Below are positions 18,295 through 53,326 of a stretch of 64,000 bases of DNA, in pieces (position 1 is the stretch's first letter; every line of letters begins with the position of its first letter). The stretch lies in assembly GCA_963843325.1 (NCBI GenBank), contig CAWJKC010000006.1, positions 199,941 through 263,940 of the forward strand, read 5' to 3'. The notes below the pieces were generated by a model that was not told the DNA's origin, did not search any database, and saw nothing but the letters and a program-made list of their open reading frames with translations. The translations under genes and the position numbers were made by a program. This DNA is from an uncultured Acidobacteriota bacterium. Its GTDB lineage: Bacteria > Acidobacteriota > Thermoanaerobaculia > UBA5066 > Gp7-AA6.

Positions 18295-19204
18295 TCCGGT
18301 AGACCTCGCGCAGCCGCGCCGCGTCGAGGTGCGTGTATTTCTGCGTCGTCGAGAGCGACGCGTGGCCGAGCAGCTCCTGGATCGCGCGCAGGTCCGCGCC
18401 GGCCTGGAGCAGGTGCGTCGCGAACGTGTGGCGCAGGGCGTGGGGCGAGATTTCCTCGGGCAGCCCGGCCGCGCGCAGGCGCCGCTTCAGCAGGCGCGCC
18501 ATCGAGCGCGGCGTGAGCCGGCCGCCGCGCGCGTTGACGAAGAGGGGCTCGCTCGACCCGGTCTCCTTGCGGCGCGCGCCGTGCCGCAGGGCCGCCCGCG
18601 AGGGCATGTACGCGCGCAGCGCGTCGGCCGCGGCCTCGCCGAACGGCACGATCCGCTCGCGGCTGCCCTTGCCCGTCACGCGCGCCAGGCGCTCGGAGAG
18701 GTCCACGTCCTCGCAGTCCAGGCCCGCCGCCTCCGAGACGCGCAGCCCCGTGGCGTAGAGCAGCTCGAAGAGCGCCCGCTCGCGCTCGGGCACGAACGTC
18801 TCGTCGTCGTCGGCCGCGAGCAGCCGCTCCGTGTCGGGCAGCGTCATCGCGCGCGGCAGCGTCTTCGGCACGCGCGGCGAGGGCAGGCCCTTGCCCGGGT
18901 TCTTCTCGATGTGCCCCTCGCGGCACGCCCAGCGGAAGAACGAGCGCAGCGTCGAGAGATGGCGCGCGAGCGAGCGGTTCGAGAGCTGCGCCCGGTGGAG
19001 GCTGGCGAGGTAGGAGCGCACGGCGAGCGTGTCGATCTTCGAGAGCGGCGTCTTGCCCGCGGTCTCGTGGGCGAACTCGCCTTCCCAGAAGTCGGCGAAG
19101 CGATCCAGGTCCGAGCGGTACGCCAGGACCGTCCGCGGGGAAAAGCGCCGCTCGTCGGCCACGTAGGTCTCGAAGCCGTCGATGGCGCGGGAAAGCGAGA
19201 TCAC
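18275..19204 (-). CDS. xerC: Tyrosine recombinase XerC/XerD family
   Basis: The 309-aa gene is intact. It reads ...LYATGLRVSEAAGL...HALRHTFATHLLQAGADLRAIQELLGHASLSTTQKYTHL, which carries the R..HxxR..Y catalytic pattern. It sits in the classical xerC-hslV-hslU context. Confidence 0.9.
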   Translation of the reverse strand: MISLSRAIDGFETYVADERRFSPRTVLAYRSDLDRFADFWEGEFAHETAGKTPLSKIDTLAVRSYLASLHRAQLSNRSLARHLSTLRSFFRWACREGHIEKNPGKGLPSPRVPKTLPRAMTLPDTERLLAADDDETFVPERERALFELLYATGLRVSEAAGLDCEDVDLSERLARVTGKGSRERIVPFGEAAADALRAYMPSRAALRHGARRKETGSSEPLFVNARGGRLTPRSMARLLKRRLRAAGLPEEISPHALRHTFATHLLQAGADLRAIQELLGHASLSTTQKYTHLDAARLREVYRNAHPKA

Positions 19205-19240
19205 GTTGCTTTCAGTGTAGCGCGGCTACAATCCCCCGCC

Positions 19241-25476: not shown

Positions 25477-25830
25477 TCAGTTCTTCTTCGGCGCGAAACC
25501 CCGCACGTCGTTCTTGACGAGGCTTTCGATCTGCTCGGCCGTGAGCTTCTTGCCGAACGGCGGCATGTCGTCCTTGCCCTCGGTCACGGACTTGATCAGC
25601 TCCGCATCGGACTCGCCCGCCTGCCACTCGGCGTCGGTGAAGTTGCGCGCCTTCATGTTCTTGCCCTTGAACGTGTCGGCCTTGCCCGTGTCTCCGTGGC
25701 ACTTGGCGCAATATTCCTTGAACAGCTTGGAGGGATGCTCTTCCTTTTCCTGCCCGGTCGCGAAGAGCGTCAGGCCGAGGGTCGCGATCGCTCCGAAGAC
25801 GAGACTGCCGAGAACCTGCGTGCGTTTCAT
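25477..25830 (-). CDS. c-type cytochrome (monohaem, secreted)
   Basis: The product reads MKRTQVLGSLVFGAIATLGLTLFATG...YCAKCHGDTG...DDMPPFGKKL. It has a CxxCH haem motif and a distal Met context. ATG at 25830 overlaps the SCO stop (ATGA). Confidence 0.8.
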   Translation of the reverse strand: MKRTQVLGSLVFGAIATLGLTLFATGQEKEEHPSKLFKEYCAKCHGDTGKADTFKGKNMKARNFTDAEWQAGESDAELIKSVTEGKDDMPPFGKKLTAEQIESLVKNDVRGFAPKKN

Positions 25831-26438
25831 CCTTTCCTCGCTTTCTGCAACTCCTGGAGTATCTGTTCGGGCTCCCAGTCCGATCCGTACGTGATCGAGG
25901 CGAGGCGTCCTTCCGGGTCGATGACCGCCACCGCCTGCTGGTGCATGATCTGGCCGCGCTCGGGATAGTAGAGGACGCCGAAGGTCTCGGCCACCCGCGC
26001 CAGCGCGCGCGGATCGCCCGTCAGGAACTTCCAGCGCGCGCTGTCGGCGCCGATCCGGCTGGCGAAGTCCGCGAGCACCGCCGGGGTGTCGGTCTCCGGA
26101 TCGACCGTCACGACGAGCAGCCGGCCGACGTCCCGTCCGGCGATCGCGGCGTTCAACTTCGAGAACTTCGCCATCGTCATCGGACAGGCCGCCGCGTCCG
26201 GGCAGCGCGTGTAGGCGAACGTGACCGCCACGGGCGCGCCGCGAAACTCCGACAACCGCACGGCCCTGCCGGTCTGGTCGGTGAGCGTGAAATCCGGGAC
26301 GCGGTCCCCGACCGCGATCGCCTTGTTCGGCTCGGGCCGGTCCGAACCCGTGGCCCCGAGCACGGCGGCCTCGCGGGGCCGGCACGCGACCGCCGAGGCG
26401 ACGGCGAGGAGGCTGGCGGCGATCAGCCACGCATTCAC
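25827..26438 (-). CDS. SCO1/SenC-family thioredoxin-fold protein
   Basis: The start is GTG 26438. The product has a membrane anchor or signal sequence, then ...FRGAPVAVTFAYTRCPDAAACPMTMAKF...LLVVTVDPETDTPAVL...GDP...H..AVAVIDPEGRL. The Cys motif is C-x5-C rather than the usual CxxxC. Confidence 0.7.
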   Translation of the reverse strand: MNAWLIAASLLAVASAVACRPREAAVLGATGSDRPEPNKAIAVGDRVPDFTLTDQTGRAVRLSEFRGAPVAVTFAYTRCPDAAACPMTMAKFSKLNAAIAGRDVGRLLVVTVDPETDTPAVLADFASRIGADSARWKFLTGDPRALARVAETFGVLYYPERGQIMHQQAVAVIDPEGRLASITYGSDWEPEQILQELQKARKG

Positions 26439-26488
26439 GCCGCCAGTTCTAACCGACGCCGGCCGGCGCCGGCCGCGTTTAAGAAAGC

Positions 26489-27456
26489 TCAAAGGGCGCG
26501 TCGCGAGGCGATGTAGCCGGCCAGCTTCTGGAGATCCACGTTGCCGCCCGAGATCACCACGCCCACGCGTTTTCCCGAGAAGTCGGCCTTCCTGTGGCGC
26601 ACGGCCGCGGCCGCGGCGGCGCCCGAGGGCTCGACGAGGACCTTCATGCGCTCGAGCATCCAGGTCAGCGTCTCGATCATCTCGTCGTCGGAGACGAGGA
26701 GGATGTCCTTGACGGTCTCCTGCACGATCGGGAACGTCCGCTTGCCCGGGCGAGGACACACGCAGGCCGTCGGCGATCGTCGGATTCTCGGGGACCTCGA
26801 CGCGGTGTCCCGCGGCGAGCGAGCGCTTCGTGTCGTCGGCGGTCTCGGGCTCGGCGCCGTAGATCACGATGCCGGGCCGCAGGTTCCGGGCCACCGTGGC
26901 CCAGCCGCTGATCAGGCCTCCGCCCGACACCGGCACGACGATCGCATCGAGATCGCCGACGTCCTCGAGCAGCTCGACGGCGCCCGTGGCCTGGCCCGCC
27001 ATGACGAGGTCGTCGTCGAAGGGCGGCACGAGCACGGCGCCGCGCTCGCGGCAGATCTGCTCGGCGAGGTCGTCGCGGCTCTGGCTCGCGCGGTCGTAGA
27101 GGACGACCTCGGCGCCGTAGCCGCGTGTCCCGTCGATCTTCGCCTGCGGGGCGTCGTCGGGCATCACGATCGTCGCGCGGATGCCGAGCATGCTGCACAC
27201 GAGCGCGACCGCCTGCGCGTGGTTGCCCGAGGAGAACGCCACGACCGCGTCGACCTTCCCGCGCTCGGTCTCCGCCTTGATCTTGTTGTAGGCGCCGCGG
27301 AACTTGAACGCGCCGGCGCGCTGGAGGTTCTCGGCCTTGAAGAAGACGCGCGCGCCGGCCGCCTCGTCGAACTGCCGCGAGGTCAGCACGGGCGTGCGGT
27401 GCGCGATGCCGGCGAGGCGCTTGCGCGCGCGCTTCGATGTCCTGCCAGGTCAGCAT
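26489..27456 (-). CDS. PLP-dependent threonine ammonia-lyase / serine-threonine dehydratase (two frame breaks)
   Basis: The N-terminus is MLTWQDIEARAQ.... The gene continues ...VFFKAENLQRAGAFKFRGAYNKI...VVAFSSGNHAQAVAL...VPVSGGGLISG and then ...FPIVQETVKDILLVSDDEMIE...VEPSGAAAAAAV...VISGGNVD. Breaks lie near 27415 and 26760. No ACT regulatory domain is evident. Confidence 0.8.
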
Positions 27457-29263: not shown

Positions 29264-31884
<2,621 letters not shown>

Positions 31885-32081: not shown

Positions 32082-33194
32082 TCACCTTCTCACCACCCCG
32101 TATCTCCCGCCCTCCACCGGCACCGCGATCCCCGCTCCCTCGAGCTCGAAGAGGCCGGCGAGAACGGTCGCCGCCGGCAGATCGAGCGCCCGGGAGATCT
32201 CCTCGGCCGAGAGCGACTCCTCGCGCCCGAGCGCTTCGAAGATCCGGCGGGACTCCGCGGACAGGTCCGCGACCGGAAACGGCGACACGGCTCCGGCGGG
32301 ACGCGGCGTGCCGACGGAAGGAAAGAGCTCCGCGAGCACGTCCTCGGCGCCGCGGCACAGGATCGCGCCGTCGCGCAGCAGCTCGTGGGCGCCGGCGGAG
32401 GTCTGCGAAAAGATGGAGCCGGGGACCGCGAAGACGTCGCGCCCGAAGTCGTTGGCCAGGCGCGCCGTGATGAGCGAGCCCGAGCGCCGCGACGCCTCCA
32501 CGACGACCACCCCCGCAGAGAGGCCGGCGATGATCCGGTTGCGGATCGGGAAGTTCTGGGGACGCGGCTCCGTCCCCGGCGGGTACTCGGAGACGAGCAG
32601 GTGATCGGCGGCCAGGCGCTCCTTCAGCTTGCGGTGCTCGCGCGGATAGTCGACGTCCAGCCCGCACCCGAGCACGGCGATCGTCCCGCCCGGGCCCTCG
32701 AGCGCGGCCTCGTGCGCCGCGGCGTCGACGCCGCGCGCAAATCCCGAGACGACCGCCATCCCGGCGCCCGACAACTCCTGGGAAAGGCGCCAGGCTACGT
32801 CGTGCCCGTACCGCGACGCGTCCCGCGAGCCGACGATCGCCACGGCCGGCAGCCGGAGCCGCTCGAGCCTGCCGAGCGCGTAGAGCAGGAACGGCGGGTC
32901 GGCGATCTCCCGGAGGGCGTCGGGGTACTCGGCGTCGAAGGCCGTCACCAGGCGGATGCCCGTGCGCTCGACCGCCGCCGCCCAGCGCAGCGCCTCGGCA
33001 TCGTCCGGGCCGCGCAGAACGGCGCGCGCCAGCTGCCGGGAACCCAGGTCCGAGGACAGCTCGTCCTCGCCCGAGGCCAGCAGGGCCTCCACCCCTCCGC
33101 GCGCGCGCAGGGCCGGCCAGAGCCGCTGCGGCGTGATCTCGCGTCCCCGCGCCCACGACAGGGCGGCACTCCGGGAAAGTGAATCAGCGCTCAA
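32082..33194 (-). CDS. dprA: DNA-processing protein DprA (Smf)
   Basis: The sequence reads ...PAVAIVGSRDASRYG...VVSGFARGVDAAAHEAAL...TIAVLGCGLDVDYPREH...LLVSEYPPGTEP...FPIRNRIIAGLS..VVVVEA...SGSLITA.... A C-terminal winged-helix-like tail follows. The start is uncertain (TTG 33194 chosen so as not to overlap the divergent gene). Confidence 0.85.
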   Translation of the reverse strand: MSADSLSRSAALSWARGREITPQRLWPALRARGGVEALLASGEDELSSDLGSRQLARAVLRGPDDAEALRWAAAVERTGIRLVTAFDAEYPDALREIADPPFLLYALGRLERLRLPAVAIVGSRDASRYGHDVAWRLSQELSGAGMAVVSGFARGVDAAAHEAALEGPGGTIAVLGCGLDVDYPREHRKLKERLAADHLLVSEYPPGTEPRPQNFPIRNRIIAGLSAGVVVVEASRRSGSLITARLANDFGRDVFAVPGSIFSQTSAGAHELLRDGAILCRGAEDVLAELFPSVGTPRPAGAVSPFPVADLSAESRRIFEALGREESLSAEEISRALDLPAATVLAGLFELEGAGIAVPVEGGRYGVVRR

Positions 33195-33257
33195 GTTAAC
33201 GTATCTCTCATGAAACCCCGGGGCGACAATTCTCCGGCTCGAAACGTGCAGGAAACC

Positions 33258-33263
33258 TATAAT
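33258..33263 (+). promoter_or_regulatory. Candidate -10 box (TATAAT) for the lipoprotein operon
   Basis: A perfect TATAAT lies 17 nt upstream of the ATG at 33281, in the dprA/lipoprotein divergent spacer. I could find no convincing -35. Confidence 0.3.
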
Positions 33264-33280
33264 ACCGACCGCCGCGAGGC

Positions 33281-33661
33281 ATGAGGAGCCGCTTGAAGCT
33301 AGATCGCATCGCCGTCCTCTCCTTACTACTTGTCGCGGGCGCGTGCTCGTCGTACTCCCATCCGGAGAAGCCGGCGACGCAGGTCGCATTCGGCACGGCG
33401 GTCGCGAAGAAAGGCCTGTGGCGCGAGGCGGCGTTCCGCTACGAGCAGGCGGTCGCGAAAGATCCGAACAACGCGCGCGCGCACAACAACCTCGCGGTCT
33501 CGCTCGAGGCCAGCGGCGACTTCGCGCGCGCCCTGGCGGAATACAAGAAGGCGCTCGAGATCAGCCCGAACGACAACTACATCCGCCGCAACTACGCGCG
33601 CTTTGCCGAGTTCTACACCGCCTACACGAAGACGACCGGAAAGGCCGCCGGTGCACCCTAA
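33281..33661 (+). CDS. TPR-repeat lipoprotein
   Basis: The product reads MRSRLKLDRIAVLSLLLVAGACSS (lipobox LVAGAC). TPR-like helices follow (AAFRYEQAVAKDPNNARAHNNLAVSLEASGDFARALAEYKKALEISPND). Confidence 0.75.
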   Translation: MRSRLKLDRIAVLSLLLVAGACSSYSHPEKPATQVAFGTAVAKKGLWREAAFRYEQAVAKDPNNARAHNNLAVSLEASGDFARALAEYKKALEISPNDNYIRRNYARFAEFYTAYTKTTGKAAGAP

Positions 33662-34358
33662 CCGGCGCAGCGGCCTCGGGGCTCTGCTCGCGGCCCTGCT
33701 GCTCGTGGTGTCCGCGTGCTCGAGCGTCGACCAGGTGAAGCTGCGCCTGCCCCTGAAGCCCAAGCTGCCGCTGCGGGGCAACGAGCGCATCGCGCTGGCG
33801 CCGTTCATCCTGGTCGCCGACCCGGACAAGGCCAAGGACAAGCGCCTGGCCAACGTCGACGTCCAGGCCGAGTTCCACCGCTTCCTCAAGAAGCAGCTCG
33901 AGAAGAAGACCAAGTTCGAGGTCATCCCGACGCCGCCCGACGTCAAGCTGCCGACCCAGAATCTCGTGGACCTCGGACGCGCGCAGGAGTTCTGGGCCGC
34001 CGTCGGGACGCAGACCAACGCCGAGCTGATCGTTTCGGGCAGCCTCGAGTTCCGCGTCGAGGACCGCTCGGGCTACAAGACCGAGGAGTACCAGTCCCCC
34101 ATCGACGGGCGGACCTACTACCGGCAGGTCTACGTCGAGCAGACCGGGTTCGTGTTCGACATCGTGTTCCTCGTCCTCGACGGCCGCACCGGCGAGAAGC
34201 TGCTCCAGGACGAGTTCAAGGACTTCCGGCAGACCGGCAGCCGCAACCGCGACGAGCTGCAGGGCCTCTTCGAGAACCTGTTCTCGCTCGAGAACCAGAT
34301 CCTGAACACCTTCGTCCCGCGCGACCGCGAGGCGGAGCGCTACATCTTCAAGGACTGA
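33651..34358 (+). CDS. Lipoprotein, unknown family
   Basis: GTG at 33651 overlaps the end of the TPR gene. The product reads ...LGALLAALLLVVSACSSVDQ (lipobox VVSAC) and is a 235-aa soluble protein. I recognise no family. Confidence 0.55.
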   Translation: MHPNRRSGLGALLAALLLVVSACSSVDQVKLRLPLKPKLPLRGNERIALAPFILVADPDKAKDKRLANVDVQAEFHRFLKKQLEKKTKFEVIPTPPDVKLPTQNLVDLGRAQEFWAAVGTQTNAELIVSGSLEFRVEDRSGYKTEEYQSPIDGRTYYRQVYVEQTGFVFDIVFLVLDGRTGEKLLQDEFKDFRQTGSRNRDELQGLFENLFSLENQILNTFVPRDREAERYIFKD

Positions 34359-34372
34359 CGCCCCACGACCGC

Positions 34373-37362
34373 ATGAAGAAACTTCTGCTGGCCCTCGCCC
34401 TGTTCGCCGCCGCCGCGGCCCCGGTCGCCGCCCAGGCGCCGGTGCTCTCGCCGTACTACGACTACTTCGGCAAGAACAAGATCGTCTACGACAAGTTCAA
34501 CTGGAAGATCTACCACTCGACGCACTTCGCCATCTACTTCTACGACCGCGACGAGGTCTCGCTCCAGAAGGTCGCGTCCTACGCCGAGAGCGCCTACGAC
34601 GACATCTCCCGGGCGCTCAACTTCCAGGTCCCCAAGCCGATCAACATCATCTATTACGCGACGCACTCCGAGTTCGAGCAGACCAACACGTTGAACGAAT
34701 TCATCCCGGAAGGCGTGGGCGCCTTCGCCCTGCCCACGCGCAACCGGATGGTCCTGCCCGTCGACCTGCCGGACGAGAAGCTCGAAAAGCTGATCGCCCA
34801 CGAGCTGACGCACGTCTTCCAGTTCGAGATCTTCTTCGGCGGCAACTTCATCCGCGCCTACACCTCCGGCGCGCCGCAGTGGCTGACGGAGGGCATGGCC
34901 TCCTACTTCGGCAACGACGAGGACGAAAAGGACGTCATGGTCCTGCGCGACGCCGTCCTGAACGACCAGGTTCCCGAGATCGCCGAGCGGGCGATCTACG
35001 GCTTCTTCGCGTACCGGTTCGGCCATGCGGTCTTCGACTTCATGCGCGCGGAGTGGGGCCCCGACGGCGTGCGCGACTTCGTCTTCGAGTACCGCGGCTC
35101 GCTCGGGCCCAACATCGACCACGTCCTGAAGCGCACGTTCGGCGTCTCCGCGGAGGAGTTCGACATCCGGTTCCGCCGCTACCTGCGCCAGCGGTTCATC
35201 AAGCTGCTGACCGAGACCGGCGAGCCCATCGACTTCGGCGACCGCGTGCGGCTGACCGAGGAGGGCAGCTCGGTCGAAGTCTCCGTGCGCGCCTTCCCGT
35301 CGGGCGACCTCGGCGCCGCGATCTCGAGCCTCGACAACGACGCCAACGTGGTCGTTCTCTCGACCCGCGACCGCAAGCTCTTCAAGAACCTGACCAAGGG
35401 ATTCAAGACCGAGTACGAGTACATCGTCGCGCAGTGGCTGACGACCGGGCCCGTCGGCGGCGTGGACCTCGCGGTGGCGCCCGACGGCAACACGATCGCG
35501 GTCTTCGTCAAGCGCGAGCGCGGCCGGGAGCTGATGCTCCTGAACGCGCTCGGCGGCGGGATCAGCCAGCTCGTCCCCATGCCGGGCCTCGACCAGGAGC
35601 TGAACCCGGCCTTCTCCCCCGATGGCCGCACGGTCGCCTTCCGCGCGATCGCCAACGGCCGGTCGGACATCTACACCTACAACCTGGACACGAAGGCCTT
35701 CGCCAACATCACCCAGGACGACGCCTTCGACTACGCCCCGACCTTCTCGCCCGACGGCCAGTGGATCTACTACTCGTCGGTGCAGGGCCGCAAGGCGAAG
35801 ATCTTCCGCATCCGGCCGGGCGTCGCGGGCTCGCGCGAACAGATCACCTACGGCGACTGGAACGACGAGGACGCCTTCATCTCGACCGACAACAAGACGC
35901 TCTACGTCACTTCGGACCGCATCAACGGCATCTACAACATCTTCGCGATCAACCTCGAGAACGGCGAGACGTCGAACTTCACGAACGTCGTCGGCGGCAC
36001 GTTCTCGCCCACCGTGCTCATCGGCCGCGACGGCACCGAGCGGCTGGTCTTCTCCGCGTACTACAAACGCCGCTTCATGCTCTACGTGACCGACGCGAAG
36101 AAGCCGTACCACCGGATGCCGGACCTGAACCCGGCGCCCTCCCCCGCCGGACCGACGACGATCCCGCCGTACCAGCCCCCGATCGAGGTCGCGATCGATC
36201 CCGAGAAGATCGACAAGCGGCCCAGCCGCGCGCTGTCGATCGAGGACGCCGCGGTCAACGTCGGCATCGGATCGGACCAGACGTTCCTGTCGAGCAGCTA
36301 CATCGTGCTCGGCGACAACCTCGGCGACCGCAAGGTCATCGCCCAGATCCAGTCGGTCTCGTCCTTCGTGGACTACGAGCTGACGTACCTGGACCTCTCC
36401 CAGCGCCTGCAGAAGGGCATCCAGGGCTTCTACAACGCCTACTACTTCATCGCGCAGAACCCGAACACCGGGGAGATCGTCCGCACGCGCAACCCCTACA
36501 AGTTCATCGGCGGCACCGTCTTCGCGGCCTATCCGCTCAACCGCTACTACCGCCTCGAGGGCAGCGTCGGCTTCCTGTCGCGCAAGTACGACGGCTACCC
36601 GGTCTGGGTCAACACCGACGACGGGTCGGGCCAGGTCTTCATCCCCACCGAGAACAACTTCCCGACGTTCGGCGGCAAGCTCGTCGGCGACACGACCGAG
36701 TACCTGGAGTTCGGGCCGATCTCGGGCCGCCGGATGTCGCTCGGCGTGAGCTACTCGCCGTACATCGGGCGGCACGAAGGCGCCCGGCTCGAGCGGCCCG
36801 ACGCTGACCTTCGACACGACCCTCGACATGCGCCAGTACATCAAGATCACGGAGCGGTCGCTGCTCGCGGCGCGGATCTACGGCTTCCACGCCTCGGGCA
36901 ACCTGCCCGACGTCCTGTCCTTCGGCGGCGTCGACACGCTGCGCGCGCTGCCGGTGTACGGCATTTACGGAAACACGGCCGGCGTTCCTGAACCTCGAGT
37001 TCCGGTTCCCCGTCATCGACTTCCTCATCACTCCCGTCCTCGGGATCCGCGACATCCGCGGCAAGGCGTTCCTGGACGTCGGCGGCGCGGCCCTGAAGGA
37101 CCAGCCCTTCCAGTTCTGGTCCGACTACACGCTCTGCGGCATCGCCGGCGTCGGAGTCCCCGGCTGCCACGGCTCGTCGGGCGGCCTGGCCGACTACGGG
37201 TTCGGGATCGAGCTCAATTTCCTGGGCCTGCCGATGCACTTCGACTTCGCGCGGCAGTGGAACGTCAAGGGCAACCTCGGCCCGGCCCAGTGCGTCGCGA
37301 CCGGCCTGAAGGATTCCTGCGGCAACTTCACGTTCGTCTTCTACATCGGGCCGTCCTTCTAG
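34373..37362 (+). CDS. Large secreted protein: HExxH peptidase-like domain + PD40/TolB-type beta-propeller repeats + C-terminal Omp85 (bacterial surface antigen) beta-barrel (two frame breaks)
   Basis: The signal peptide is MKKLLLALALFAAAAAPVAAQA. An HExxH motif is present (LIAHELTHVFQFE). PD40-like repeats follow (LNPAFSPDGRTVAFRAIANGRSDIYTYNL..., YAPTFSPDGQWIYYSS...KIFRI). The C-terminus reads ...FGGVDTLRALPVYG...AFLNLEFRFPV...GFGIELNFLGLPMHFDFA...FTFVFYIGPSF with a terminal Phe. Breaks lie near 36765 and 36985. Confidence 0.65.
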
Positions 37363-37395
37363 GGCGGCCCGACCGATCCCGTACAATCCGGGACA

Positions 37396-38172
37396 GTGCC
37401 CGCACGAACATCGCTCGCCGTCCGCGCGCTGGGGCCCTACGGCGGCTCCGCCCCGGGCTATCGCACGACGACGTTTCTCATCGACGGCGAGACGGCCCTG
37501 GACGCCGGCTCGCTGACGGAGGCCCTGCCGCTGTCCGCGCAGCGTCGGATCCGCCGCGTCGTCCTGACGCACGCGCACTTCGACCACGTCGCCTCACTGC
37601 CCTTCCTGGTCGAGAACCTCTACGGCCGCGGAACGCCGCTCGAGCTCATCGCGCCTGCCGCGGTGCTCGCGGACCTGAAGCGGCACGTCTTCAACGACGC
37701 CACGTGGCCGGACTTCACGCGGCTGCCCTCGCGCGCGCGGCCCACGCTCGTGTACCGTCCGATCCCCGCGGGCAAGGCGACGCGGGCCGGCAGCGTGACG
37801 ATCACGGCTCTGCCGGTCGATCACATCGTGCCCGCATACGGCTACCTCGTCGGCAAGCCCGGCCGCTCGGTGCTCTTCTCCGGCGACACGAAGTCGACGG
37901 AGCGGATCTGGACGCATGCGCGCCGCGCGCGCGACCTCAAGGCCATCTTCCTCGAGGTGTCCTTCTCCGACGCCCAGGCCGCCGTCGCGCGCGCCTCCTG
38001 CCACCTGACGCCGTGCCTGCTGCCGGCGGAGCTCGAGAAGGCGCCGCCGCGCGTCCCGGTGTTCCTGTACCACATGAAGCCGCCGTCGCTGTCCCGCATC
38101 CGGCGCGAGGTGGCGGCGCTCGGGCAGCCCCGCCTGCGGCTGCTCGAGTCCGAGCGATCCTTCCGCTTCTAG
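37396..38172 (+). CDS. MBL-fold hydrolase, class-II 3',5'-cyclic-nucleotide phosphodiesterase-like
   Basis: The 258-aa gene is intact. It reads ...TTFLIDGETALDAGSL...VVLTHAHFDHVASLPFL...GYLVG...VLFSGDT... Confidence 0.6.
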   Translation: MPARTSLAVRALGPYGGSAPGYRTTTFLIDGETALDAGSLTEALPLSAQRRIRRVVLTHAHFDHVASLPFLVENLYGRGTPLELIAPAAVLADLKRHVFNDATWPDFTRLPSRARPTLVYRPIPAGKATRAGSVTITALPVDHIVPAYGYLVGKPGRSVLFSGDTKSTERIWTHARRARDLKAIFLEVSFSDAQAAVARASCHLTPCLLPAELEKAPPRVPVFLYHMKPPSLSRIRREVAALGQPRLRLLESERSFRF

Positions 38173-38180
38173 GGAGCGTC

Positions 38181-38258
38181 AGCAGGCTGCTGAAAAATGG
38201 ATGCGGGCGCCCTTACGGCGGCGTGGCGTCATCCCACACCCTTTTTCAGCAGCCTGCT
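38181..38258. repeat. 17-bp inverted repeat between convergent genes (possible bidirectional terminator)
   Basis: AGCAGGCTGCTGAAAAA (38181-38197) is perfectly complementary to TTTTTCAGCAGCCTGCT (38242-38258), with a 44-nt spacer. Each arm is itself a small CAGCAG/CTGCTG palindrome. The right arm overlaps the stop of the minus-strand gene. Confidence 0.5.
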
Positions 38259-39473
38259 AGAGCATCCTCGCCCAGGCGAGCAGGTCGACCGCGAGCGAGC
38301 CCGCCAGGCGTCCGCGCAGCGAGTCGTTGCGCAGGAGATCCTCGCGCCGCCCCGTCAGCTCCGCCTCCCTGGTCAGGTAGGTCTTCTCCCCGCGCGTGAT
38401 CACGCGATACGCGGAAGCGGACTCGCGTCCGTCAAGGCGCCGCACGATCGCGACGCGGCGCTCGGCCGCAGTCGATCGCCGACGTCTTCCTCGATGGCCG
38501 GGCCGGAGCCGCCCGACGACGGCGCCGAGAGCGTCAGTCGGAACCCGCCCGGAATGTCCGCGCCCAACGCCACGTCGGCGACTCCCTCGAGAAGCTTTCG
38601 GTACCCGTCCCGCGTCGCGATGGCGCGATGCGCCGCGTCGGGCATCGCATCGGTCTCGAGATACGCGGTCAGGCGCGCGTTCTGTCTCCGCCTTGTCGGC
38701 GCTTTCGCCCGCGATCGCGAACGCCGCGGCGAGCACTTCCGCATCGATGCCGAAGAGCTCCGACAGCGCGGCCTCCCGCGGCGCCGGAGCCGGCACGCGC
38801 AGGCGCGAGTGCAGGTCGTCGACGCGCACCTCTCCCCCTCCGAACGAAAGCACGCGGTTGCCGAGGTCGCGCCGCAGCACGACCTCCTGGAGAAACAGGG
38901 CGTTCGGACGGAAGGTCTCGCGCCAGAGCGCCGCGAACGCCTCGTCGGACACCGGCGCGCCGTAGACCTCGATCTCGCGCGGCGTCTCCGGCGTCCCCTC
39001 GAGGAAGGCGATCCGGAAGCCGCGCGCCGTCTACGGCAACCTCCATCTCGCCCTGGCTCGTCCCGAAAAGACCCGCCCGCGCGGGCAGGATCGCCGGCAG
39101 CGGAAAGCCGACGTCCGCGATCACCTCCCCCGCCGCCGTTTCGACCAGGAGGGCCGCGTGATCGTTCTCGTTGCGGACGCGGCCGAGCAGTTTTCGCGAC
39201 CGGAAGCCGAGCGCAGACAGAAGCTCCTGAAACGCGGCGACCCGCGCAAAGCAGGTGCCACCCGTCCCGCTCGAGAGGTGCTCTGCCCAGAAGACGTCCG
39301 GAGTTCGCGGTTTCTGCGCCGGATCCGCAAGCGCGCGCGTGGCGCACGATCTTCGACGCGTTCTCGAAGGGCACCTTCGCGTTGAAGCGCGCAAACAGCG
39401 CCTCGAGAAATCCGGAACCGGGCTCGGCGCGCGAGAGGTCGAGCGCCTCGAGGACCTCGTCGGCCGGAATCAC
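38257..39473 (-). CDS. Arylamine N-acetyltransferase-like N-terminal domain protein with unknown C-terminal domain (about four frame breaks)
   Basis: GTG at 39473 overlaps the upstream stop (GTGA). The N-terminus reads ...FLEALFARFNAKVPFENASKIV...WAEHLSSGTGGTCFARVAAFQELLSALGF...NDHAALLV.... This resembles the NAT Cys-His core. The remainder is spread over frames with breaks near 39340, 39020, 38680 and 38460. Confidence 0.4.
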
Positions 39474-40220
39474 CGTCCCGACAACCGCGCGACCATGTCC
39501 TTCAACCGGAACCGCGCGTCCTCGCTGAACCAGAAGTCGAGGAAGGGGTCGTGGTCGCGCGCCTGGTCGAACCGGGCGATCGCGGCCGCGCGCGAGCGCA
39601 GCTTGATGGCCGTGTAGGCGGCGCCCGAAAGGCCCGCGAGAAAGCGCGCCCGCTCGACGGCTCGCTCGAGCAGCTCCCCCGCCGGGACGACCTGGTCCAC
39701 GAGGCCGATCGCGAGCGCGCGGTCCACCGCGACGTTCTCCCCGGTCGCCGCCAGGCGCTCCATCTGGCGCGCGCCGACGAACGTGGCGAAACGGTTCCAT
39801 CAGGCAGGCCGGGACCGACACGCCGAGGATGACTTCCGAGAGGCCGAACTTGCCCTTGCCTTCGGCCGCGATCCGCTCGTCGGCGCCCATCGCCGCGATC
39901 AGCCCGCCGGCGATCGCGTGGCCGGACAGCGCCGCGACGAGCGGCGGTCCGAACACGAAGAGCTGGCGCACGAGCTCGCAGTAGTCCTGGACGAACTGCT
40001 CCATCCCGGCGCGGTCGCGGTCGACGAGCAGCGGCAGGTCCCAGCCGGCCGAGAACATGCCCGGCAGGGCCGACGCGAGGACGACGCCGCGCGCCTTCGA
40101 CTGCGCGGCGAGCGCCTGCGAGAGCTCCGCGACGAGCTCGGGCGAGAAGGCGTTCGCCTTCGGGCGATTCAGGGTCAGGACCGCGATCTCGTCGCGCGTC
40201 TCGATGGAAACCAGGCTCAA
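39470..40220 (-). CDS. Enoyl-CoA hydratase/isomerase (crotonase) family protein, one frame break
   Basis: TTG at 40220 follows AAGGAGG and overlaps the pdxT stop (TTGA). The sequence reads ...IAVLTLNRPKANAFSPELVAEL...MFSAGWDL...PLVAALSGHAIAGGLIAAMGADERIA.... The break lies near 39785. Confidence 0.75.
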
Positions 40221-40813
40221 GCGCTCCTCCTTGCCGGTTGTGCCTGCCCGAAGAGCAGGCGGTGCAGCCGGCGGTCGCCGGTCAGCTCCGGGTGAAACGT
40301 GGCGGCCACGACGTTGCCCTGCCGGACCAGGACGGGCTCGCCGCCGTGCGCGGCGAGGACCTCGACGCCCGGGCCGACCTGCCGGATCCGCGGCGCGCGA
40401 ATGAAGACGGCCGGCAGCGGTCCCCCGAGAGCGTCGCACGCGACCTCGCCCAGGAACGAATCGACCTGCCGGCCGTAGGCGTTGCGCTCGACGGCCATGT
40501 CCACGAGCCCGAGGCCCTTCTGGCTCGGGTTGGAAACCTCGCGCGCGAGCACGATCGCGCCCGCGCACGTGCCGAGAATCGGCCGGCCGCTCCCGGCAAA
40601 GGCGCCGAAGGCCTCTTCCCACGGCTCGGCCTCGAAGAACTTCCACAGCGTCGAGGACTCGCCCCCCGGGATGATCAGCCCGCCGGCCCGGGCGAGATCC
40701 CCGTGGAGCCGCAGCTCGAAGCTCTCGACGCCGATCTGCGCGAGGGCCTTCCTGTGCGCCTCGAAGTCGCCCTGCAGCGCGAGGACGGCGACCGGTCCCG
40801 GCTCCATCACCAT
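40217..40813 (-). CDS. pdxT: Pyridoxal 5'-phosphate synthase glutaminase subunit PdxT
   Basis: The 198-aa gene is intact. It reads ...[17 protein letters not shown]...[11 protein letters not shown]...[12 protein letters not shown]...AATFHPELT... Confidence 0.9.
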
Positions 40814-41688
40814 CCGCGCGTCTGCAGCTGGGCCTCTTCCGGAAGCTTCGCCGCCTCGATCCCCTTCATGCCCGAGCCGAGCGATTCCTCGGCCGCGAGC
40901 AGCGCGTCGGCGTCGCGCCAGTGCGTCGTCGCCTTCACGATGGCGCGCGCCCGGCTCTCCGGATCGTCCGACTTGAAGATGCCCGACCCGACGAAGACGG
41001 CCTCGGCCCCGAGCTGCATGCAGAGCGCCGCGTCCGAGGGCGTCGCGATGCCGCCGGCGGCGAAGTTCGGCACGGGCAGCTTGCCCGTCTCGGCCACCTC
41101 GACGACCAGCGCGAACGGCGCCTGGAGCCTCTTCGCCGCGGCCATGAGCTCGTCCTTGGAGAGCTGCGTGAGCATCTTCATCTCGCGGTGGACCTCGCGC
41201 AGGTGCTTGACGGCGTGGACGATGTCGCCCGTGCCCGCCTCCCCCTTCGTCCGGATCATCGCGGCGCCCTCGCCGATCCGGCGCAGCGCCTCACCGAGAT
41301 TGCGGCAGCCGCAGACGAACGGCACCGTGAAATCGGCCTTGTAGACGTGGTTTTCCTCGTCGGCCGGAGTCAGGACTTCCGACTCGTCGATGAAGTCGAC
41401 CTTGAGCGCCTGCAGCACCCGCGCCTCGGCGAGGTGCCCGATGCGGCACTTGGCCATCACCGGGATCGAGACGGCCTCCTGGATCTCGCGGATCTTCGAG
41501 ACCGGCGACATCCGCGCGACTCCCCCGTCGCGCCGGATGTCCGACGGGCACGCGCTCGAGCGCCATGACGGCGGCCGCGCCCGCGGCCTCCGCGATCCGC
41601 GCCTGGTCGGCGTTGACGACGTCCATGATGACGCCGCCCTTCAGCATCTCCGCGAGTCCCACCTTCAGCCGGAACGTGTCTCGTCCAT
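40807..41688 (-). CDS. pdxS: Pyridoxal 5'-phosphate synthase lyase subunit PdxS (two frame breaks)
   Basis: The sequence reads ...[39 protein letters not shown], then ...[37 protein letters not shown]...[19 protein letters not shown]...[36 protein letters not shown]. Breaks lie near 41675 and 41520. Confidence 0.9.
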
Positions 41689-41746
41689 GTCGTCCCTCTT
41701 GCTCGACGACTCCAGCTCACGACTCATGGCCCACTGACTCTCTCCG

Positions 41747-43205
41747 TCACACCACCGGCGCCGCGAACGACGCGCCGGTTCTCGACTGCGCTTCCAGCAC
41801 CGCCTCCCCGAGCAGCGCGATCCCCCGCTCGATGTCGCGCCGCTCGACGCGCGACACGGAGAGGCGCACGTTGGGCCGGTCCACGCCCGCCGGATCGAAA
41901 TCCTGCCCCGGCGCGACCGCGACTCCCCGCGCCGCCGCCGCTTCGGCGACCCGACGGCCGGAGACCCCTTCGGGCAGGTGCAGCCAGAAGAGCGGGTTCG
42001 AGCCCTCGGCGCCCCACCAGGAGACGCCGGGCAGGTACCGGGACAGCGCCAGCGCGCGCTTCCGCCGAGCGCAGCACCACTTCCTCGGCGCGGCTGGCCC
42101 TCGCCTTCCGGTCCGCTCCGGCGCGCAGAAACGCCGCGACGGCCGCCTGCAGCGGCACGGGGGTCTGAAAATCCGTGGCCTTCTTGACGCGTGCCAGCTG
42201 CTCGACGATCGGACGGGCCGCGGCGATCCAGCCGATCCGAAACCCCGGAACGAGGTCCTTGGACAGCGTGCCGAGCCACACAACGCGCTCGGGCGCGCGC
42301 GCCGCGAGCGGGATCCGTCCCGGCTCGGGCTCCTCGTAGCCATCCTCGATGACGAGGGCGCCCGCCGAGAGCGCGGCGTCGAGAACGGCGGCGCGGCGTT
42401 CTTCGGTCATCGTGACGCCGGTCGGGTTCTGGCGCTCGGGCATGAGGTAGACGAGCTTCGCGCGGCGCGATTCCAGCGGCCGCGGATCCGGGCCCTCGGC
42501 GTCCATGGGCAGGGCCAGGACCGAGACGCCGGCGAGCCTCGCCAGCGTGAGCGCCCCGGAGTAGCGTCGGCGACTCCGCGGCGACGACGTCGTCGGGATC
42601 GGTGAACGCGCGGAAGAGAAGATCGAGCCCCTGCTGCGCGCCGCTGACGATCAGGATCTCGTCGGGCGAGCGCACGATGCCGCTCTCGGCGAGCCGGCGG
42701 GAGAGCTCGATGCGCAGCTCGTCGAGCCCGAGGGGCGGAGCGTACATCCAGAGGTCCTTGCGCCGGCTCCACGCGTACGAGAGCGTGCGCGTGAACTCTT
42801 CGAGGGGAAAGAATCGCTCGTCGGGCGCCAGGCGCGAGAAATCCGCAACGAGGGGGGCGGAAAGGGGAGTCCCGGCTTCCTCGGGCAGGCCCGCGACGCG
42901 GCGCGAGACCAGCGTCCTCCAGCCGAAACGCCGCCGCCCCGCCGAGCCTCGGGCCGAACGACCGTTCCGCTGCCGACGCGCCCGTCGACCAGCCCGCTCT
43001 CCTGAAGACGGCGATACGCGGCCTGGACCGTGCCCCGATTGATGCCGAGCGCGGCCGCGAGCTCGCGCGTGGTCGGCAGGCGCGTGTTCTCGGCCAGGAC
43101 GCCGTCGGAAATCCAGCGTTCCATCGCCGCGTAGACCTGATCGGACAGGGGAGCGCCCGCCGTTCGATCCAGATTGATCCGCGCAAGATCCAATTGGCCC
43201 GCCAT
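41747..43205 (-). CDS. GntR-family HTH / class-I aminotransferase-fold regulator (MocR subfamily, PdxR-like), about three frame breaks
   Basis: The N-terminal winged helix reads ...LSDQVYAAMERWISDGVLAENTRLPTTRELAAALGINRGTVQAAYRRLQESGLVDGRVGSGTVV. The aminotransferase-like body follows (...ILIVSGAQQGLDLL..., ...YLMPERQNPTGVTM..., ...LGTLSKDLVPGFRIGW...). Breaks lie near 42945, 42545 and 42060. It sits immediately upstream of pdxS on the same strand. Confidence 0.75.
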
Positions 43206-43239
43206 CGAGCCAATTGTATCGGCCCGAGCGCAGGCAGCT

Positions 43240-43322
43240 CAAACCGAAATTATTACTGTAGTATTACTTACGCTAAATACCAATAAATACTGATAGTTGA
43301 CGTTCAAATCTACAGTAATTAA
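43240..43322 (-). promoter_or_regulatory. AT-rich leader/promoter region with inverted and direct repeats upstream of the pdxR-like gene
   Basis: This ~80-bp stretch is far more AT-rich than its surroundings. It holds a perfect 10-bp inverted repeat, ATTACTGTAG (43252-43261) and CTACAGTAAT (43310-43319). Direct repeats are ATTACT x2 and AAATAC x2. Several -35/-10-like hexamers occur on the minus strand (TTGAAC, TTGGTA, TACAGT, TAATAA). Confidence 0.5.
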
Positions 43323-43590
43323 TCAAGCGCCGTGCTTGCGGAGCTCGTCCTCGAGCGCCCGTGGAGAACTGGAACTCCCTCTCGGTCTCGGAGAGATTCT
43401 TGCGCTTGGCCAGCGCGGCGCGGGCCTTCTCTTCGAGCGCATCGAGCTCGGCGTAGCTGTCGGTCAACTCCCGGACGACCGCCCGCCGCGCGGTCTCGTC
43501 GTCGGCCTTCTGCTCGAGATTCCGGTTCTCCTTGAGGCTCTTCAGGATCACCCGGGACAGGTACAGGATCCGGTCGGCCGAGACCTTCAC
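43323..43590 (-). CDS. DUF507-like small protein (one frame break near the 3' end)
   Basis: GTG at 43590 overlaps the transaldolase stop (GTGA). The sequence reads [68 protein letters not shown].... Shifting frame near 43370 gives ...LEDELRKHGA with its stop at 43323. Confidence 0.5.
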
Positions 43591-44211
43591 GATGGCCTCC
43601 CCGCCCGCAGATCCTCCGAGAACGGATGCCGGAAGAGCTGCTCGATCACGGCGGCGGGAAGCGCGGCCACGTCCGCGCCCATCAGGGCGGAGTCGAGGAC
43701 GTGGATCGGGTTGCGGGCCTCGGAAACGATGATCTGCGACTGGAACCCGTAGTTGTCGTAGACCCGGATGACCTGCTCCACCAGGTCCATCCCGATCGAG
43801 CCCGCATCGTCGAGCGGCCCGACCGCCGCGGCCACGTAGCTGACGTTGGCCTTGGCCGCGATCAGGGCCTGCGCCATCGAATAGCAGCCGGCGGCGCACG
43901 TGGCGATCTGGTCCTGCGCGAAAAGCCGCGCGACCCGCATCCCCTCGGGCCTCAAGGGCAGCCGGACGATGATGTCCTTGCCGAGCTTGGCCAGCTCCCG
44001 GCCCTCCTTGTACATGCCCTTGGGGTCGTCGGAGCCCGTCTCCACGAGCACCGGGACCGTCGGTCAGAGAGGCCAGGTCCCGGACCGCCTTGCGGTAGTC
44101 GACTCCCGCCGCTTCGGCCCCGGAAAGGGACACCCAGGCCCCGTCGAGAAGCCCGAGATCCTTGATCCGCCGCGCGTCTTCGACGCTGGCGCTGTCGAGA
44201 AAAAATCGCAT
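43587..44211 (-). CDS. Transaldolase family 3B / fructose-6-phosphate aldolase-like (one frame break)
   Basis: The N-terminus is [36 protein letters not shown].... After a break near 44050 it continues ...[58 protein letters not shown]...[24 protein letters not shown]. Confidence 0.75.
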
Positions 44212-44245: not shown

Positions 44246-49376
<5,131 letters not shown>

Positions 49377-49380
<4 letters not shown>

Positions 49381-50502
49381 CGAACTCCCTGTCCCGCGCC
49401 CACGGCGCGCAGGGCGCGGGGCACCGCGACGGCGACCGCGCCGCCCCGCACTTCCAGCACGGCCGCCGCCCGACGCGACCAGCGCGCCGAGGGCGCCGCG
49501 GTCGTCAGGAGCACGGCCGCATTGGACGGCAACGTCTCGAAAAACTCTTCGACGGAAGCCTCCGAGAGGCCCGCGTCGAAATCGTCGGCGCCAAAGAGCG
49601 GGGACTCGCCCGCCGCCTTGGCGACGGCCTTCCATTCCGCCAGCTTCGCCAGCGCCACCGTGCGGGCGATCTCGCCCGAGGACGCCTCGGTCGCGAGCGC
49701 GCGGCCGCGGCGCTTCCAGGTCGAGGTCGTCGCGCTGCGGTCCGGCCAGCGTGTAGCCGCGGCGCCGCTCGAGGGCCGCGACGCGCTCGACGGCCCTGCG
49801 CATCTCTTCGGCCGAACCGTCGCCGCCCGTGTAGGCGGCCTCGATGTCGGCGAAGTCGCCGCCGGCGGTGCGCGCGAGCTGCCGGAAATCGGCTTCCCAG
49901 GCCGCGAGCGCCGCGACGCGGTGGCGGCGCACGGCCGAGCCCGCGATCACGAGCTCCTCCGTCCACGCCTCGAGCTCGCCGGCGCTGCCCGCCGTGCCCG
50001 ACTTCCACCGCGCGAGCAGCGCATTGCGTTCGCGCAGGGCCGCGGAGTAACGGACGAGGTCGTCGCCGGCGGCCGGCTTGAGGCCCAGGACGAGCCGGTC
50101 GAGAAAACGGCGCCGCGCCGACGGGGCTCCCGTGACCAGCTCCTGGTGCTCGGGGGCGAGAAAGACCGCCGGGGCGAGCTGCGAGATCTCCCGGAACCCC
50201 GCGGGTTTTGCGCCCCGCGTGAAGGCGCGCCCCTCTTCGCGCGACCAGCTCACGCCGATGCGCTCGGAGCCGCTGCGGCCCTCGACCGTGCCCTCGATCG
50301 CGAAGCGGCCGCCGTCGCGGGCCATGTCGCCCGAGATCGCGCCGCGGAAGGAGCGCTGACCGCACAGCAGCGACACCGCCTCGAGCAGGTTCGTCTTGCC
50401 CTGCGCGTTCTCTCCCGTGATGAGCGTGACGCCGGCACCGAAGGAGACGGGGTCGGGAGAGAGATTACGGAAGCCCTGGCTGGTGAACTCGAAAAGCTGC
50501 AA
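49377..50502 (-). CDS. recF: DNA replication/repair protein RecF (one frame break)
   Basis: The start is TTG 50502, 17 nt after the dnaN stop. The sequence reads [54 protein letters not shown].... The C-terminus (...SSGE...[12 protein letters not shown]...) follows a break near 49725. The stop overlaps the gyrB ATG (ATGA). Confidence 0.85.
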
Positions 50503-50519
50503 GTGTTCCCTTCGCAGGT

Positions 50520-51632
50520 TCAGAGGCGCATCGGCATGACGACGTACGTGTAGCGCGACGCGCCCTCGATGCCGCCCTCCGGCTGACACAGGCACTGCGT
50601 GTTCTCGTCCTTCAACTCGAGGCGGACCTTCTCGGACTCGGACTCGTCGAAAAAATCGAGGAGGTACTGGGCGTTCAATCCGATCGAGAGCGGCTCGCCC
50701 TCGAAGTCGACGTCGAGCGTCTCGGTGCCCTCGCCCAGCTCCTGGCTGGCCGAGGCGACCGTCAGCAGTCCCTTCTCGAAGGACAGCTTCACGCCGCGCG
50801 AACGCTCCGACGAAAACAGCGAGACGCGGCGGATCGCCGCCTGGCAGGCCGCGGCCGGCACCGTCGCCACGCGGTCGTTGGACTTGGAGAGGATCTTCTC
50901 GTAGTCGGGAAAGTTCACGTCGAGCAGGCGCGCGATCAGCTGCCGGCTGCCGACGGTGAAGAGCAGATGATTCTCCGAATGGCGGATCTCGACGCGCGCA
51001 TCCGCGCCGCCGTCCATCTTGAGGATTTCCGCCAGGGCCTTCTTCGGGATCAGGACGTTCGGAAGCGTGGCCTTGGGGTCTTCCTTCGGGAAATCGATGA
51101 GGGCCAGGCGGTGCCCGTCGGTCGCGACGAGCTCGAATTCCTTACCCTTGTCCTTGAGCAGCGCGCCCATGAGCTGGAAGCGGGTCTCCTCCGCGGAAAC
51201 CGCGTACAAAACCTTACGGGTCAATCGCTTCCAGAGGTCCAGGGGGAACGAAATCCCCTTCTTCGCTTCGACCTTCGGCACGGTCGGAAAGTCTTCGGCG
51301 GGCTGCGCCACGAGCCGGAAGCTCGACCTCTGGCAGGTCACTCCCAGGTAGTGGTTTTCCATCAGCTTCAGGTTCACGTCCGCTTCCGGAAGGTTGCGGA
51401 TGAGGTCGAAGAGTTTTCGCGCGGGCACGGTCACGCTGCCCGGACGGACGACCCTCGCTTCCGCCTGGGAGAGCAGCGTCAGGTCGAGATCGGTCGACGT
51501 GAATCCGAGATGTCCATCCGCGGCGCGAAGCAGGATGTTCGAGAGGATCGGAATCGTATTTTTTCTCTCGACGACCCCCTGCATGAGCGTGAGCTCATTC
51601 AGAAAATCCCCGCGCTTGACCGTCAATTCCAT
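50520..51632 (-). CDS. dnaN: DNA polymerase III beta sliding clamp
   Basis: The 370-aa gene is intact. It reads [37 protein letters not shown]...YVVMPMRL. An SD sequence (GAGGTGG) lies upstream. Confidence 0.95.
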
Positions 51633-53176: not shown

Positions 53177-53188
53177 TGAAAAGGCCGG

Positions 53189-53219: not shown

Positions 53220-53326
53220 TCCCGTTTCGGTCCGGGGCCGGGGAGTATATGCGAGTTCCAGGCGGCCGGAAGCCCACTTTTCTGCCCCTTTTCGAAGCGG
53301 TCCCGGGTCGGGGTCGGGTTTCTCCC

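Follow-up and report, generated by a model that had tools for sequence, protein, structure and literature searches.

A three-gene locus of an uncultured Acidobacteriota bacterium encoding a WD40-like Omp85 protein with a peptidase domain and two lipoproteins

The Omp85/TpsB superfamily was divided by Heinz and Lithgow into ten subfamilies, one of which is the "WD40-like" subfamily (Heinz and Lithgow 2014, Front Microbiol 5:370, PMC4104836). According to the supplementary tables of that catalogue, the WD40-like proteins combine PF01103 with PF07676 repeats (Table S2), and the Phyre2 hits of their members comprise the BamA/TamA barrel, TolB and M1 aminopeptidases (1z5h, 4kxd, 4fgm, 3qnf; Table S3). 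The class was later summed up in a 2024 paper as having "divergent WD40 and peptidase domains" (PMC11358297), and our literature search on the subfamily returned the 2014 catalogue and passing mentions only, with no experiment and no gene neighbours reported. In this work, we analysed three adjacent genes, called gene 1, gene 2 and gene 3 below, in a 64,000-nucleotide stretch of DNA from an uncultured Acidobacteriota bacterium (contig CAWJKC010000006.1 of assembly GCA_963843325.1, positions 199,941 to 263,940); this whole stretch is referred to as the window. Genes 1 and 2 encode lipoproteins, and gene 3 encodes a large protein with an N-terminal peptidase domain, a beta-propeller and a C-terminal Omp85 barrel. 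A first-pass annotation of the window, made from the letters alone, could not place this protein in a described system, which turned out to be incorrect, because the architecture is that of the WD40-like Omp85 proteins as their folds are given in Table S3 of the 2014 catalogue. Judged by its predicted domains, gene 3 is a member of this subfamily, and each structural trait by which the tables of the catalogue describe the class is found in it.

The POTRA-less Omp85 proteins have been catalogued and are functionally blank, and the question raised by them is what role an Omp85 barrel plays once it is freed of POTRA domains. Among Omp85 barrels joined to an enzyme, the only one known to have been studied is PlpD, the patatin-like Omp85 protein of type Vd, whose enzyme domain is exclusively periplasmic and whose barrel acts as a scaffold (PMC11116518). 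In the window, the three genes are co-directional and tightly packed, with an overlap of 11 nucleotides between gene 1 and gene 2 and a gap of 14 nucleotides between gene 2 and gene 3 (Table 1), and they are flanked by a divergent dprA gene (minus strand, end ~33176) and by a metallo-beta-lactamase (MBL)-fold gene, in DNA with a G+C content of ~70%. A scan of 32900-38500 for promoters and terminators gave no signal above chance. From gene order and sequence, the best explanation of the locus is a three-gene operon encoding an outer-membrane protein complex.

Architecture of the gene 3 protein

The Pfam matches, the family profiles and a Foldseek search with an AlphaFold2 model agree on one secreted protein made of a gluzincin peptidase domain, a PD40 propeller and an Omp85 barrel, as the first-pass annotation had proposed, and all sequence features that it had listed were found again at their positions. 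The model was built from 54 sequences and has a mean predicted local distance difference test score (pLDDT) of 68 and a predicted template modelling score of 0.44. The signal peptide of gene 3 contains no Cys, and thus the protein is not a lipoprotein. Distant full-length homologues, which align with gene 3 in one stretch, pass the cut-offs of Peptidase_MA_2, PD40 and Omp85 together.

In the peptidase domain, full-length homologues exceed the gathering score of Peptidase_MA_2, reaching 5e-18, and the family profile of the N-terminal domain matches the cold-active M1 aminopeptidase 3cia at 6e-5, with HExxH, WLxEG and the catalytic Tyr aligned; aminopeptidase N entries are weak matches to the same profile. 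The Pfam family Peptidase_M1 has no match in the window protein, whose peptidase domain spans ~240 amino acids (aa). Six residues (H143, E144, H147, E173, Y214 and R125) show no variation among 45 members of the family down to ~25% identity, nor among a further set of 42 members, which indicates that the activity is under selection, and on the strength of these residues the peptidase domain of gene 3 is catalytically intact. The searched passages and supplementary tables of PMC4104836 hold no mention of this invariance of HExxH, Glu and Tyr. The region upstream of HExxH reads "PEGVGAFALP" (family consensus GVGGFAEP), and the Glu of this region is not kept in the window protein.

The propeller of the window protein was scored by PD40 at 1.7e-18 and by the NCBIfam model of TolB at 6.7e-24. 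In the Protein Data Bank (PDB), TolB is matched at 4e-16 by the single sequence and at 3e-36 by a profile of the 45 diverse members, the tricorn protease 1k32 is matched by that profile at 1.5e-13, and Foldseek places TolB (~6e-10) next after the BamA barrels. Precomputed Pfam matches include Tricorn_N and Tricorn_2nd, and the DPPIV_N models also match the propeller. We rejected TolB itself as the identity of gene 3, since its score with TIGR02800 is 84.6 bits where the cut-off is 343, the alignment is confined to the propeller part, and the N-terminal domain of TolB is absent.

No POTRA family is among the Pfam matches listed for the window protein, for its 45 relatives or for the longer forms of 1060-1136 aa, and the AlphaFold2 model has no beta-alpha-alpha-beta-beta unit in front of the first barrel strand, where only the disordered linker of 46 aa is found. 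The absence of POTRA domains claimed in the first-pass annotation is therefore supported by both the Pfam scans and the model.

For the barrel, the model contains 16 long strands at residues 622-991, of which strands 11 and 12 are joined by a long loop, and BamA barrels are the first Foldseek hits in the PDB (E 2e-11; template modelling score ~0.6 against barrel-only entries). The 45-member family profile matches BamA at 3.5e-16, and the match takes in the complete barrel of the F. nucleatum protein. Strand 13 carries "FLDVGG" (FxDxG), in which F899, D901 and G903 are conserved in at least 90% of the sequences; the NxExRFP motif is present (FLNLEFRFP, from 36985), and the C-terminus reads ...IGPSF with a terminal Phe. 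In this clade, Ala-Leu takes the place of the Gly-aromatic residues that follow the loop-6 Arg.

The deposited sequence of gene 3 is interrupted by two frame breaks, and removal of one base at each of them gives an open reading frame (ORF) of 995 codons, in agreement with the third protein of ~1000 aa that had been annotated. In an end-to-end alignment, the corrected protein is 97% identical to an intact database protein of 995 aa (P0001), and the three frame pieces match this protein in order, with residues 1-799 at 97%, 784-870 at 81% and 871-995 at 94% identity. Synonymous and non-synonymous codon differences from the related locus L003, which is 93% identical, number 118:53 before break 1, 9:4 between the breaks and 16:8 after break 2, and this unchanged ratio indicates that purifying selection in the corrected frame runs to the stop codon. 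Frame breaks relative to intact orthologues also affect five of nine neighbouring genes (topA, an enoyl-CoA hydratase-family (ECH) gene, pdxS, a GntR-aminotransferase gene and a transaldolase gene), and gyrA and mnmG are split in the same way. The closest relatives are long-read metagenome-assembled genomes (MAGs), and the length of the match to one of them, L035, is also no multiple of three. Because similar breaks hit topA, gyrA, pdxS and other genes, the two breaks in gene 3 are, as far as alignments can tell, sequence artefacts.

The opposite reading, in which the breaks are real and the locus is a pseudogene in decay or consists of three small genes that are separate, draws on the fact that the deposited sequence holds two +1 shifts that fail to compensate each other. 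We consider this very improbable, and both versions of it were rejected on account of the extra bases relative to orthologues, the codon ratios and the breaks across the neighbours: comparable breaks in topA, gyrA, pdxS, mnmG and other genes of the window speak against decay, as do the codon ratio that does not change downstream of the breaks, the 81-94% protein identity that the downstream pieces retain with the intact orthologue, and the long-read origin of the nearest relatives, L035 included. Thus, the frame breaks are not gene boundaries, and the three ORF fragments of gene 3 ought to be annotated as a single gene. Elsewhere in the window, single-base frame breaks are likewise pervasive, at 29422-31884, 39473-44211, 44249-46972 and 59912-61441. 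The window sequence is error-prone and probably that of a long-read MAG, and in view of these pervasive breaks every ORF call in it needs frame correction.

The family to which gene 3 belongs is large. More than 2000 full-length homologues are present in databases, and homologues at 25-43% identity over the full length span several phyla; the relatives that carry names are from Acidobacteriota/Thermoanaerobaculia, Zixibacteria, Eisenbacteria and Ignavibacteria. When 1.84 billion representatives were scanned, 994 clusters reached E <= 1e-30, a number in which fragments and PD40-only proteins are included. Among the best 150 of these 994 (50%-identity representatives), 80 span the peptidase domain to the barrel, and all 80 have HExxH and end in F, Y or W. 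In databases, the proteins are called "hypothetical protein", "BamA/TamA family outer membrane protein", "PD40 domain-containing protein" or "biopolymer transporter Tol", and the first and the last two of these names understate proteins of the gene 3 type.

Table 1 Features of the three-gene locus and of neighbouring regions of the window
Feature	Positions	Strand	Remarks
Gene 1	33281-33661	+	126-aa TPR lipoprotein; signal peptide, Cys at "LLLVAGAC", 2-3 TPR motifs
Gene 2	33651-34358	+	235-aa lipoprotein; GTG start, canonical lipobox "LVVSAC"
Gene 3	34373-37362	+	one 995-aa WD40-like (PD40) Omp85 protein, by predicted domains; deposited sequence reads through three frames
Signal peptide of gene 3	34373-34435	+	MKKLLLALALFAAAAAPVAAQ; read directly; no Cys
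M1-like gluzincin (Peptidase_MA_2) domain	34505-35227	+	aa ~45-285; helical in the AlphaFold2 model
Peptidase motif HELTH	34799-34813	+
Zinc-ligand Glu173	34889-34891	+	in WLTEG
Tyr214	35012-35014	+
TolB/tricorn-type PD40 beta-propeller	35240-36097	+	aa ~290-575; all-beta in the AlphaFold2 model
Proline-rich linker	36098-36235	+	46 aa (KKPYHRMPDLNPAPSPAGPTTIPPYQPP...); residues 576-621, low pLDDT; occupies the usual place of POTRA domains
16-strand BamA-type Omp85 barrel	36236-37362	+	aa 622-995
Frame break 1	36766-36768	+	one extra base in ATCGGGCGG; blastn gap against L003, L004, L005 and L035; protein alignment agrees
Loop-6 motif GGVDTLRALP	36924-36953	+	Arg857 invariant
Frame break 2	36981-36984	+	one extra base in GCCGGCGTTC; blastn gap against L003, L004, L005 and L035; protein alignment agrees
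MBL-fold / class-II phosphodiesterase-like gene	37396-38172	+	starts 34 nucleotides past gene 3
PDZ + S41 (Ctp/tricorn-core type) peptidase gene	17092-18486	-
XerC/D-type integrase gene	18278-19225	-
PALP + SCO1/SenC ORF	25830-27449	-	single stop-to-stop ORF
Origin-type genes	44249-62766
dnaN	50523-51647	-
dnaA	51864-53348	-
yidC	54109-55761
parA	61924-62766

Two lipoproteins as neighbours of the barrel gene

The first-pass annotation had described gene 1 as a TPR lipoprotein and gene 2 as a lipoprotein of no recognisable family, and the Pfam and NCBIfam scans led to the same description. Gene 1 matches TPR_2 at 6.7e-13 and TPR_11 at 1.2e-12. Gene 2 has no Pfam or NCBIfam family above threshold, with FlgT_M (3e-4) and LptE (0.09) as sub-threshold matches, and its relatives weakly match FlgT_M (7e-5), LpoB (0.007), DUF4136 and DUF3280, which hints at a small alpha/beta lipoprotein fold. 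None of the BamB-E families is among the Pfam and NCBIfam matches of genes 1 and 2, gene 1 matching generic TPR families only. An AlphaFold2 model of gene 2 from 32 close homologues was discarded as unusable (pLDDT 47), and Foldseek with this model returned insignificant noise (CRISPR Csm, CprK and Hsp90).

Gene 2 has 1744 homologues in databases, every one of which is named "hypothetical", and it is often more conserved than gene 3, with identities of 94% versus 80% in L007, 77% versus 58% in L039 and 65% versus 46% in L080. Long invariant motifs in the gene 2 family include EDRSGYKTEEYQSP and FENLFSLENQILN.

The home lineage of the locus was represented by 80 genome loci whose barrel genes encode proteins 44-93% identical to gene 3, and homologues of genes 1 and 2 lie immediately upstream of the barrel gene in all 76 of those with enough upstream flank. 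In these genomes the trio could be plain synteny, because topA and dprA are kept there too. More telling are the distant clades. In L083 (the same record as L096), which holds the homologue P0391 of the P0369 clade at ~30% identity, a TPR gene, a gene for a 231-aa lipoprotein and the barrel gene stand together amid tmk, holB and PSP1 genes, and a metagenome scan with an alignment of this one clade gave seven further loci, all of which keep the trio, with the small lipoprotein going down to 38% identity. The gene arrangement of the window is repeated in L085 and L089. A changed order is found in L084 and L087, in which the TPR gene and the barrel gene are followed by the gene for a 229-aa lipoprotein.

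Gene 1 is 35% identical to the TPR protein of L083 (E 9e-16) and 29% identical to that of L084 (E 2e-8). The hidden Markov model of the gene 2 family, searched against the neighbours of distant barrel genes, detected neither the L083 nor the L084 lipoprotein. Profile-profile comparison of the gene 2 family with the 231-aa family by hhalign gave a probability of 92% and an E value of 7e-7 over 212 columns, and 80% and 1.5e-5 after removal of the signal peptides, against 0.2% for a reversed-sequence control. The link with two lipoproteins that had been annotated from the window is thus conserved beyond local synteny, as seen in the L083 clade and in the profile-profile homology, and genes 1 and 2 are, by these comparisons, conserved partners of the barrel gene. 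The co-occurrence of the three genes across genomes, which the same annotation had proposed to survey, holds in part: the trio is intact in the 76 home-lineage loci, in the P0391 clade, in L085 and in L089, whereas L084 and L087 have it reordered and L086 and L088 have the barrel gene without its partners. The searched passages and supplementary tables of PMC4104836 carry no mention of TPR and ~230-aa lipoprotein neighbours, and the new element of this locus may be the conserved, partly rearranged three-gene module with its unusually conserved ~230-aa lipoprotein.

Two further observations concern these distant loci. In L086 (3588-4853) and L088 (3650-4912), whose contigs are unrelated, an EPSP_synthase-family (murA-like) gene precedes the barrel gene. 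In L084, a 367-aa gene (3951-5054, minus strand), whose only Pfam match is Omp85 and whose length leaves no room for POTRA domains, is divergent from the TPR/barrel/lipoprotein cluster and upstream of it; the related locus L087 has no such gene. In the window itself, no separate canonical bamA is found among the ORFs scanned with Pfam.

Possible function of the complex

The first-pass annotation had compared the two lipoproteins to BamB-E and suggested a putative outer-membrane machine that would capture, process or export substrates. The reading that we favour, with moderate confidence, is that the locus would encode a periplasmic zinc peptidase that is tethered to the outer membrane, gated by the propeller and accompanied by two docking lipoproteins. 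The barrel would be mainly a membrane anchor or scaffold, and with the N-terminus of an Omp85 barrel lying in the periplasm, the peptidase and the propeller would hang beneath the outer membrane. The propeller may restrict access as in DPP-IV/prolyl-oligopeptidase-type enzymes and tricorn, so that only unfolded chains or oligopeptides would reach HExxH...E...Y. Both lipoproteins may dock on the periplasmic domains, the TPR protein being a putative interaction or substrate-capture module, and the complex would probably serve for local proteolysis on the inner side of the outer membrane, for example the clearing of stalled or misfolded envelope proteins or peptides. The PD40 propellers of tricorn and of S9 peptidases gate access to the active site. 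A tethered periplasmic peptidase is favoured because of this gating, because the enzyme domain of PlpD stays in the periplasm and because the N-terminus of Omp85 proteins is periplasmic.

Several observations weigh against this reading or weaken its basis. The barrel keeps every hallmark of BamA, which is as compatible with an active insertase as with an anchor. Both lipoproteins are missing from L086 and L088, which encode forms of 1069-1118 aa, and as they are absent in some clades they are not obligatory for the family; moreover, the 229-aa lipoprotein of L084 and L087 has no similarity to gene 2 that profile-profile comparison could detect. In the window protein itself, the Peptidase_MA_2 score (3.7e-4, 20.8 bits) is below the cut-off of 32.4 bits and Pfam Omp85 (PF01103) has no match, with 24 of the 45 full-length relatives passing the latter. 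The domain assignments rest on homology transfer, on profiles and on a model of medium confidence.

The insertase-like features of the barrel lead to an alternative in which the locus would encode an auxiliary assembly or quality-control machine resembling BAM, the beta-barrel assembly machinery, with the barrel as an active insertase or lateral-gate partner, the propeller as a BamB-like scaffold, the peptidase acting like BepA against stalled substrates, and the TPR and small lipoproteins in BamD/BamE-like roles. The barrel is indeed nearest to BamA by both fold and profile, the loop-6 Arg and the FxDxG "lid-lock" residues are kept across the family, the partner trio includes a TPR lipoprotein, and Sam50 without POTRA is still able to assemble barrels, as cited in PMC4104836. 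However, the POTRA domains by which BamA holds BamB-E and receives substrate are lacking in gene 3, and PlpD keeps the same barrel hallmarks and yet is not known as an insertase (PMC11116518). Gene 1 is also far smaller than BamD, gene 2 matches no BAM lipoprotein family, and two clades do without the lipoproteins. We therefore regard a BAM-like machine as possible, though doubtful.

The barrel could also be an exporter, which would make the protein a type-V or two-partner peptidase that is displayed on the surface or secreted, its peptidase-propeller passenger being exported for extracellular peptide scavenging. A flexible proline-rich linker precedes the barrel, and the relatives occur in Acidobacteriota, Zixibacteria, Eisenbacteria and Ignavibacteria, which are heterotrophic phyla. 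The Omp85/TpsB superfamily includes translocators, as the catalogue states (PMC4104836). Export is nevertheless quite improbable in our view: the barrel is of the Omp85/BamA type rather than the TpsB type, with only 6 of 45 relatives touching ShlB, and the loop-6 lock that closes the lumen is conserved. In PlpD, the supposed precedent, the enzyme domain remains periplasmic (PMC11116518), and a folded propeller plus peptidase of ~570 residues is an implausible passenger without POTRA domains or a partner translocator.

A more far-reaching proposal, which we consider unlikely, is that both lipoproteins would join the POTRA-less Omp85-peptidase in a dedicated outer-membrane complex that has so far gone unrecognised. 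Its BamA-type barrel would be linked in cis to a propeller-gated zinc peptidase, and as a self-contained machine it would survey or process outer-membrane proteins or lipoproteins alongside BAM; it would be widespread both among Acidobacteriota and in one further deep lineage or more. The large family, the complete catalytic set and the presence of the two lipoproteins in at least part of the family provide a concrete hypothesis of a three-component complex, for which HExxH and the loop-6 Arg are targets for point mutants. The conserved three-gene module makes this hypothesis testable, and experiments are feasible thanks to culturable relatives in Myxococcota and Rhodothermus, which are given in the 2014 catalogue (PMC4104836).

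Genomic surroundings and comparison with known systems

The MBL-fold gene downstream of gene 3 is kept in the Acidobacteriota-type loci (in all with enough downstream flank except L082) and in L085, and the distant clades L083, L084, L087 and L089 have no copy of it. This gene may be co-transcribed with the trio and is probably outside the module. In the related genome L002, a separate 639-aa protein with PD40 and PPC domains (1-1618, plus strand) is encoded just beyond topA, which indicates that the neighbourhood in that lineage has more than one PD40 propeller protein. The window adjoins a chromosomal replication origin, near which dnaA, dnaN, yidC, parA, gyrA, mnmE and mnmG are found. Farther away, a gene for a PDZ-S41 peptidase adjoins a XerC/D-type integrase gene, and the overlap of their coordinates may be another frame break. 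A single ORF joins a PALP domain to a SCO1/SenC thioredoxin-like domain and could be a genuine fusion or two genes merged by a sequencing indel.

Compared with described systems, gene 3 is related in part to several. It resembles BAM in its 16-strand barrel, in the loop-6 Arg, the FxDxG motif of strand 13 and the C-terminal aromatic residue, and in its genetic tie to lipoproteins, one of which is a TPR protein. Unlike in BAM, POTRA domains are absent, peptidase and propeller are joined to the barrel in cis, and the partner lipoproteins are not homologues of BamB-E; without a POTRA domain, gene 3 also falls outside the canonical definition of Omp85. With PlpD it shares an enzyme domain N-terminal to an Omp85 barrel, but PlpD carries POTRA and a lipase domain, whereas gene 3 has a zinc peptidase and a propeller and no POTRA.

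The domains in front of the barrel have relatives of their own. The propeller, of which TolB is the closest solved relative, matches the tricorn and DPPIV_N models and so recalls tricorn, DPP-IV and the S9 peptidases; however, the catalytic domain of gene 3 is that of a metallopeptidase, whereas tricorn and S9 enzymes are serine peptidases. M1 aminopeptidases align with gene 3 through HExxH, WLxEG and Tyr, but gene 3 appears to lack their N-terminal beta and C-terminal helical domains, no clear GxMEN motif was seen in it, and it is anchored by a barrel.

The fullest likeness is to the WD40-like Omp85 proteins, which, in the tables of PMC4104836, share with gene 3 a C-terminal barrel of the BamA/TamA type, a TolB-like propeller that replaces POTRA, and an N-terminal M1 aminopeptidase fold. 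The WD40-like set given there comes from cultured Myxococcota, Rhodothermus, Caldithrix, Chlorobi and others, whereas the copy in the window belongs to an uncultured Thermoanaerobaculia-like Acidobacteriota bacterium. The three-domain architecture has thus already been described in that catalogue, and gene 3, by its predicted domains, adds one member to the subfamily.

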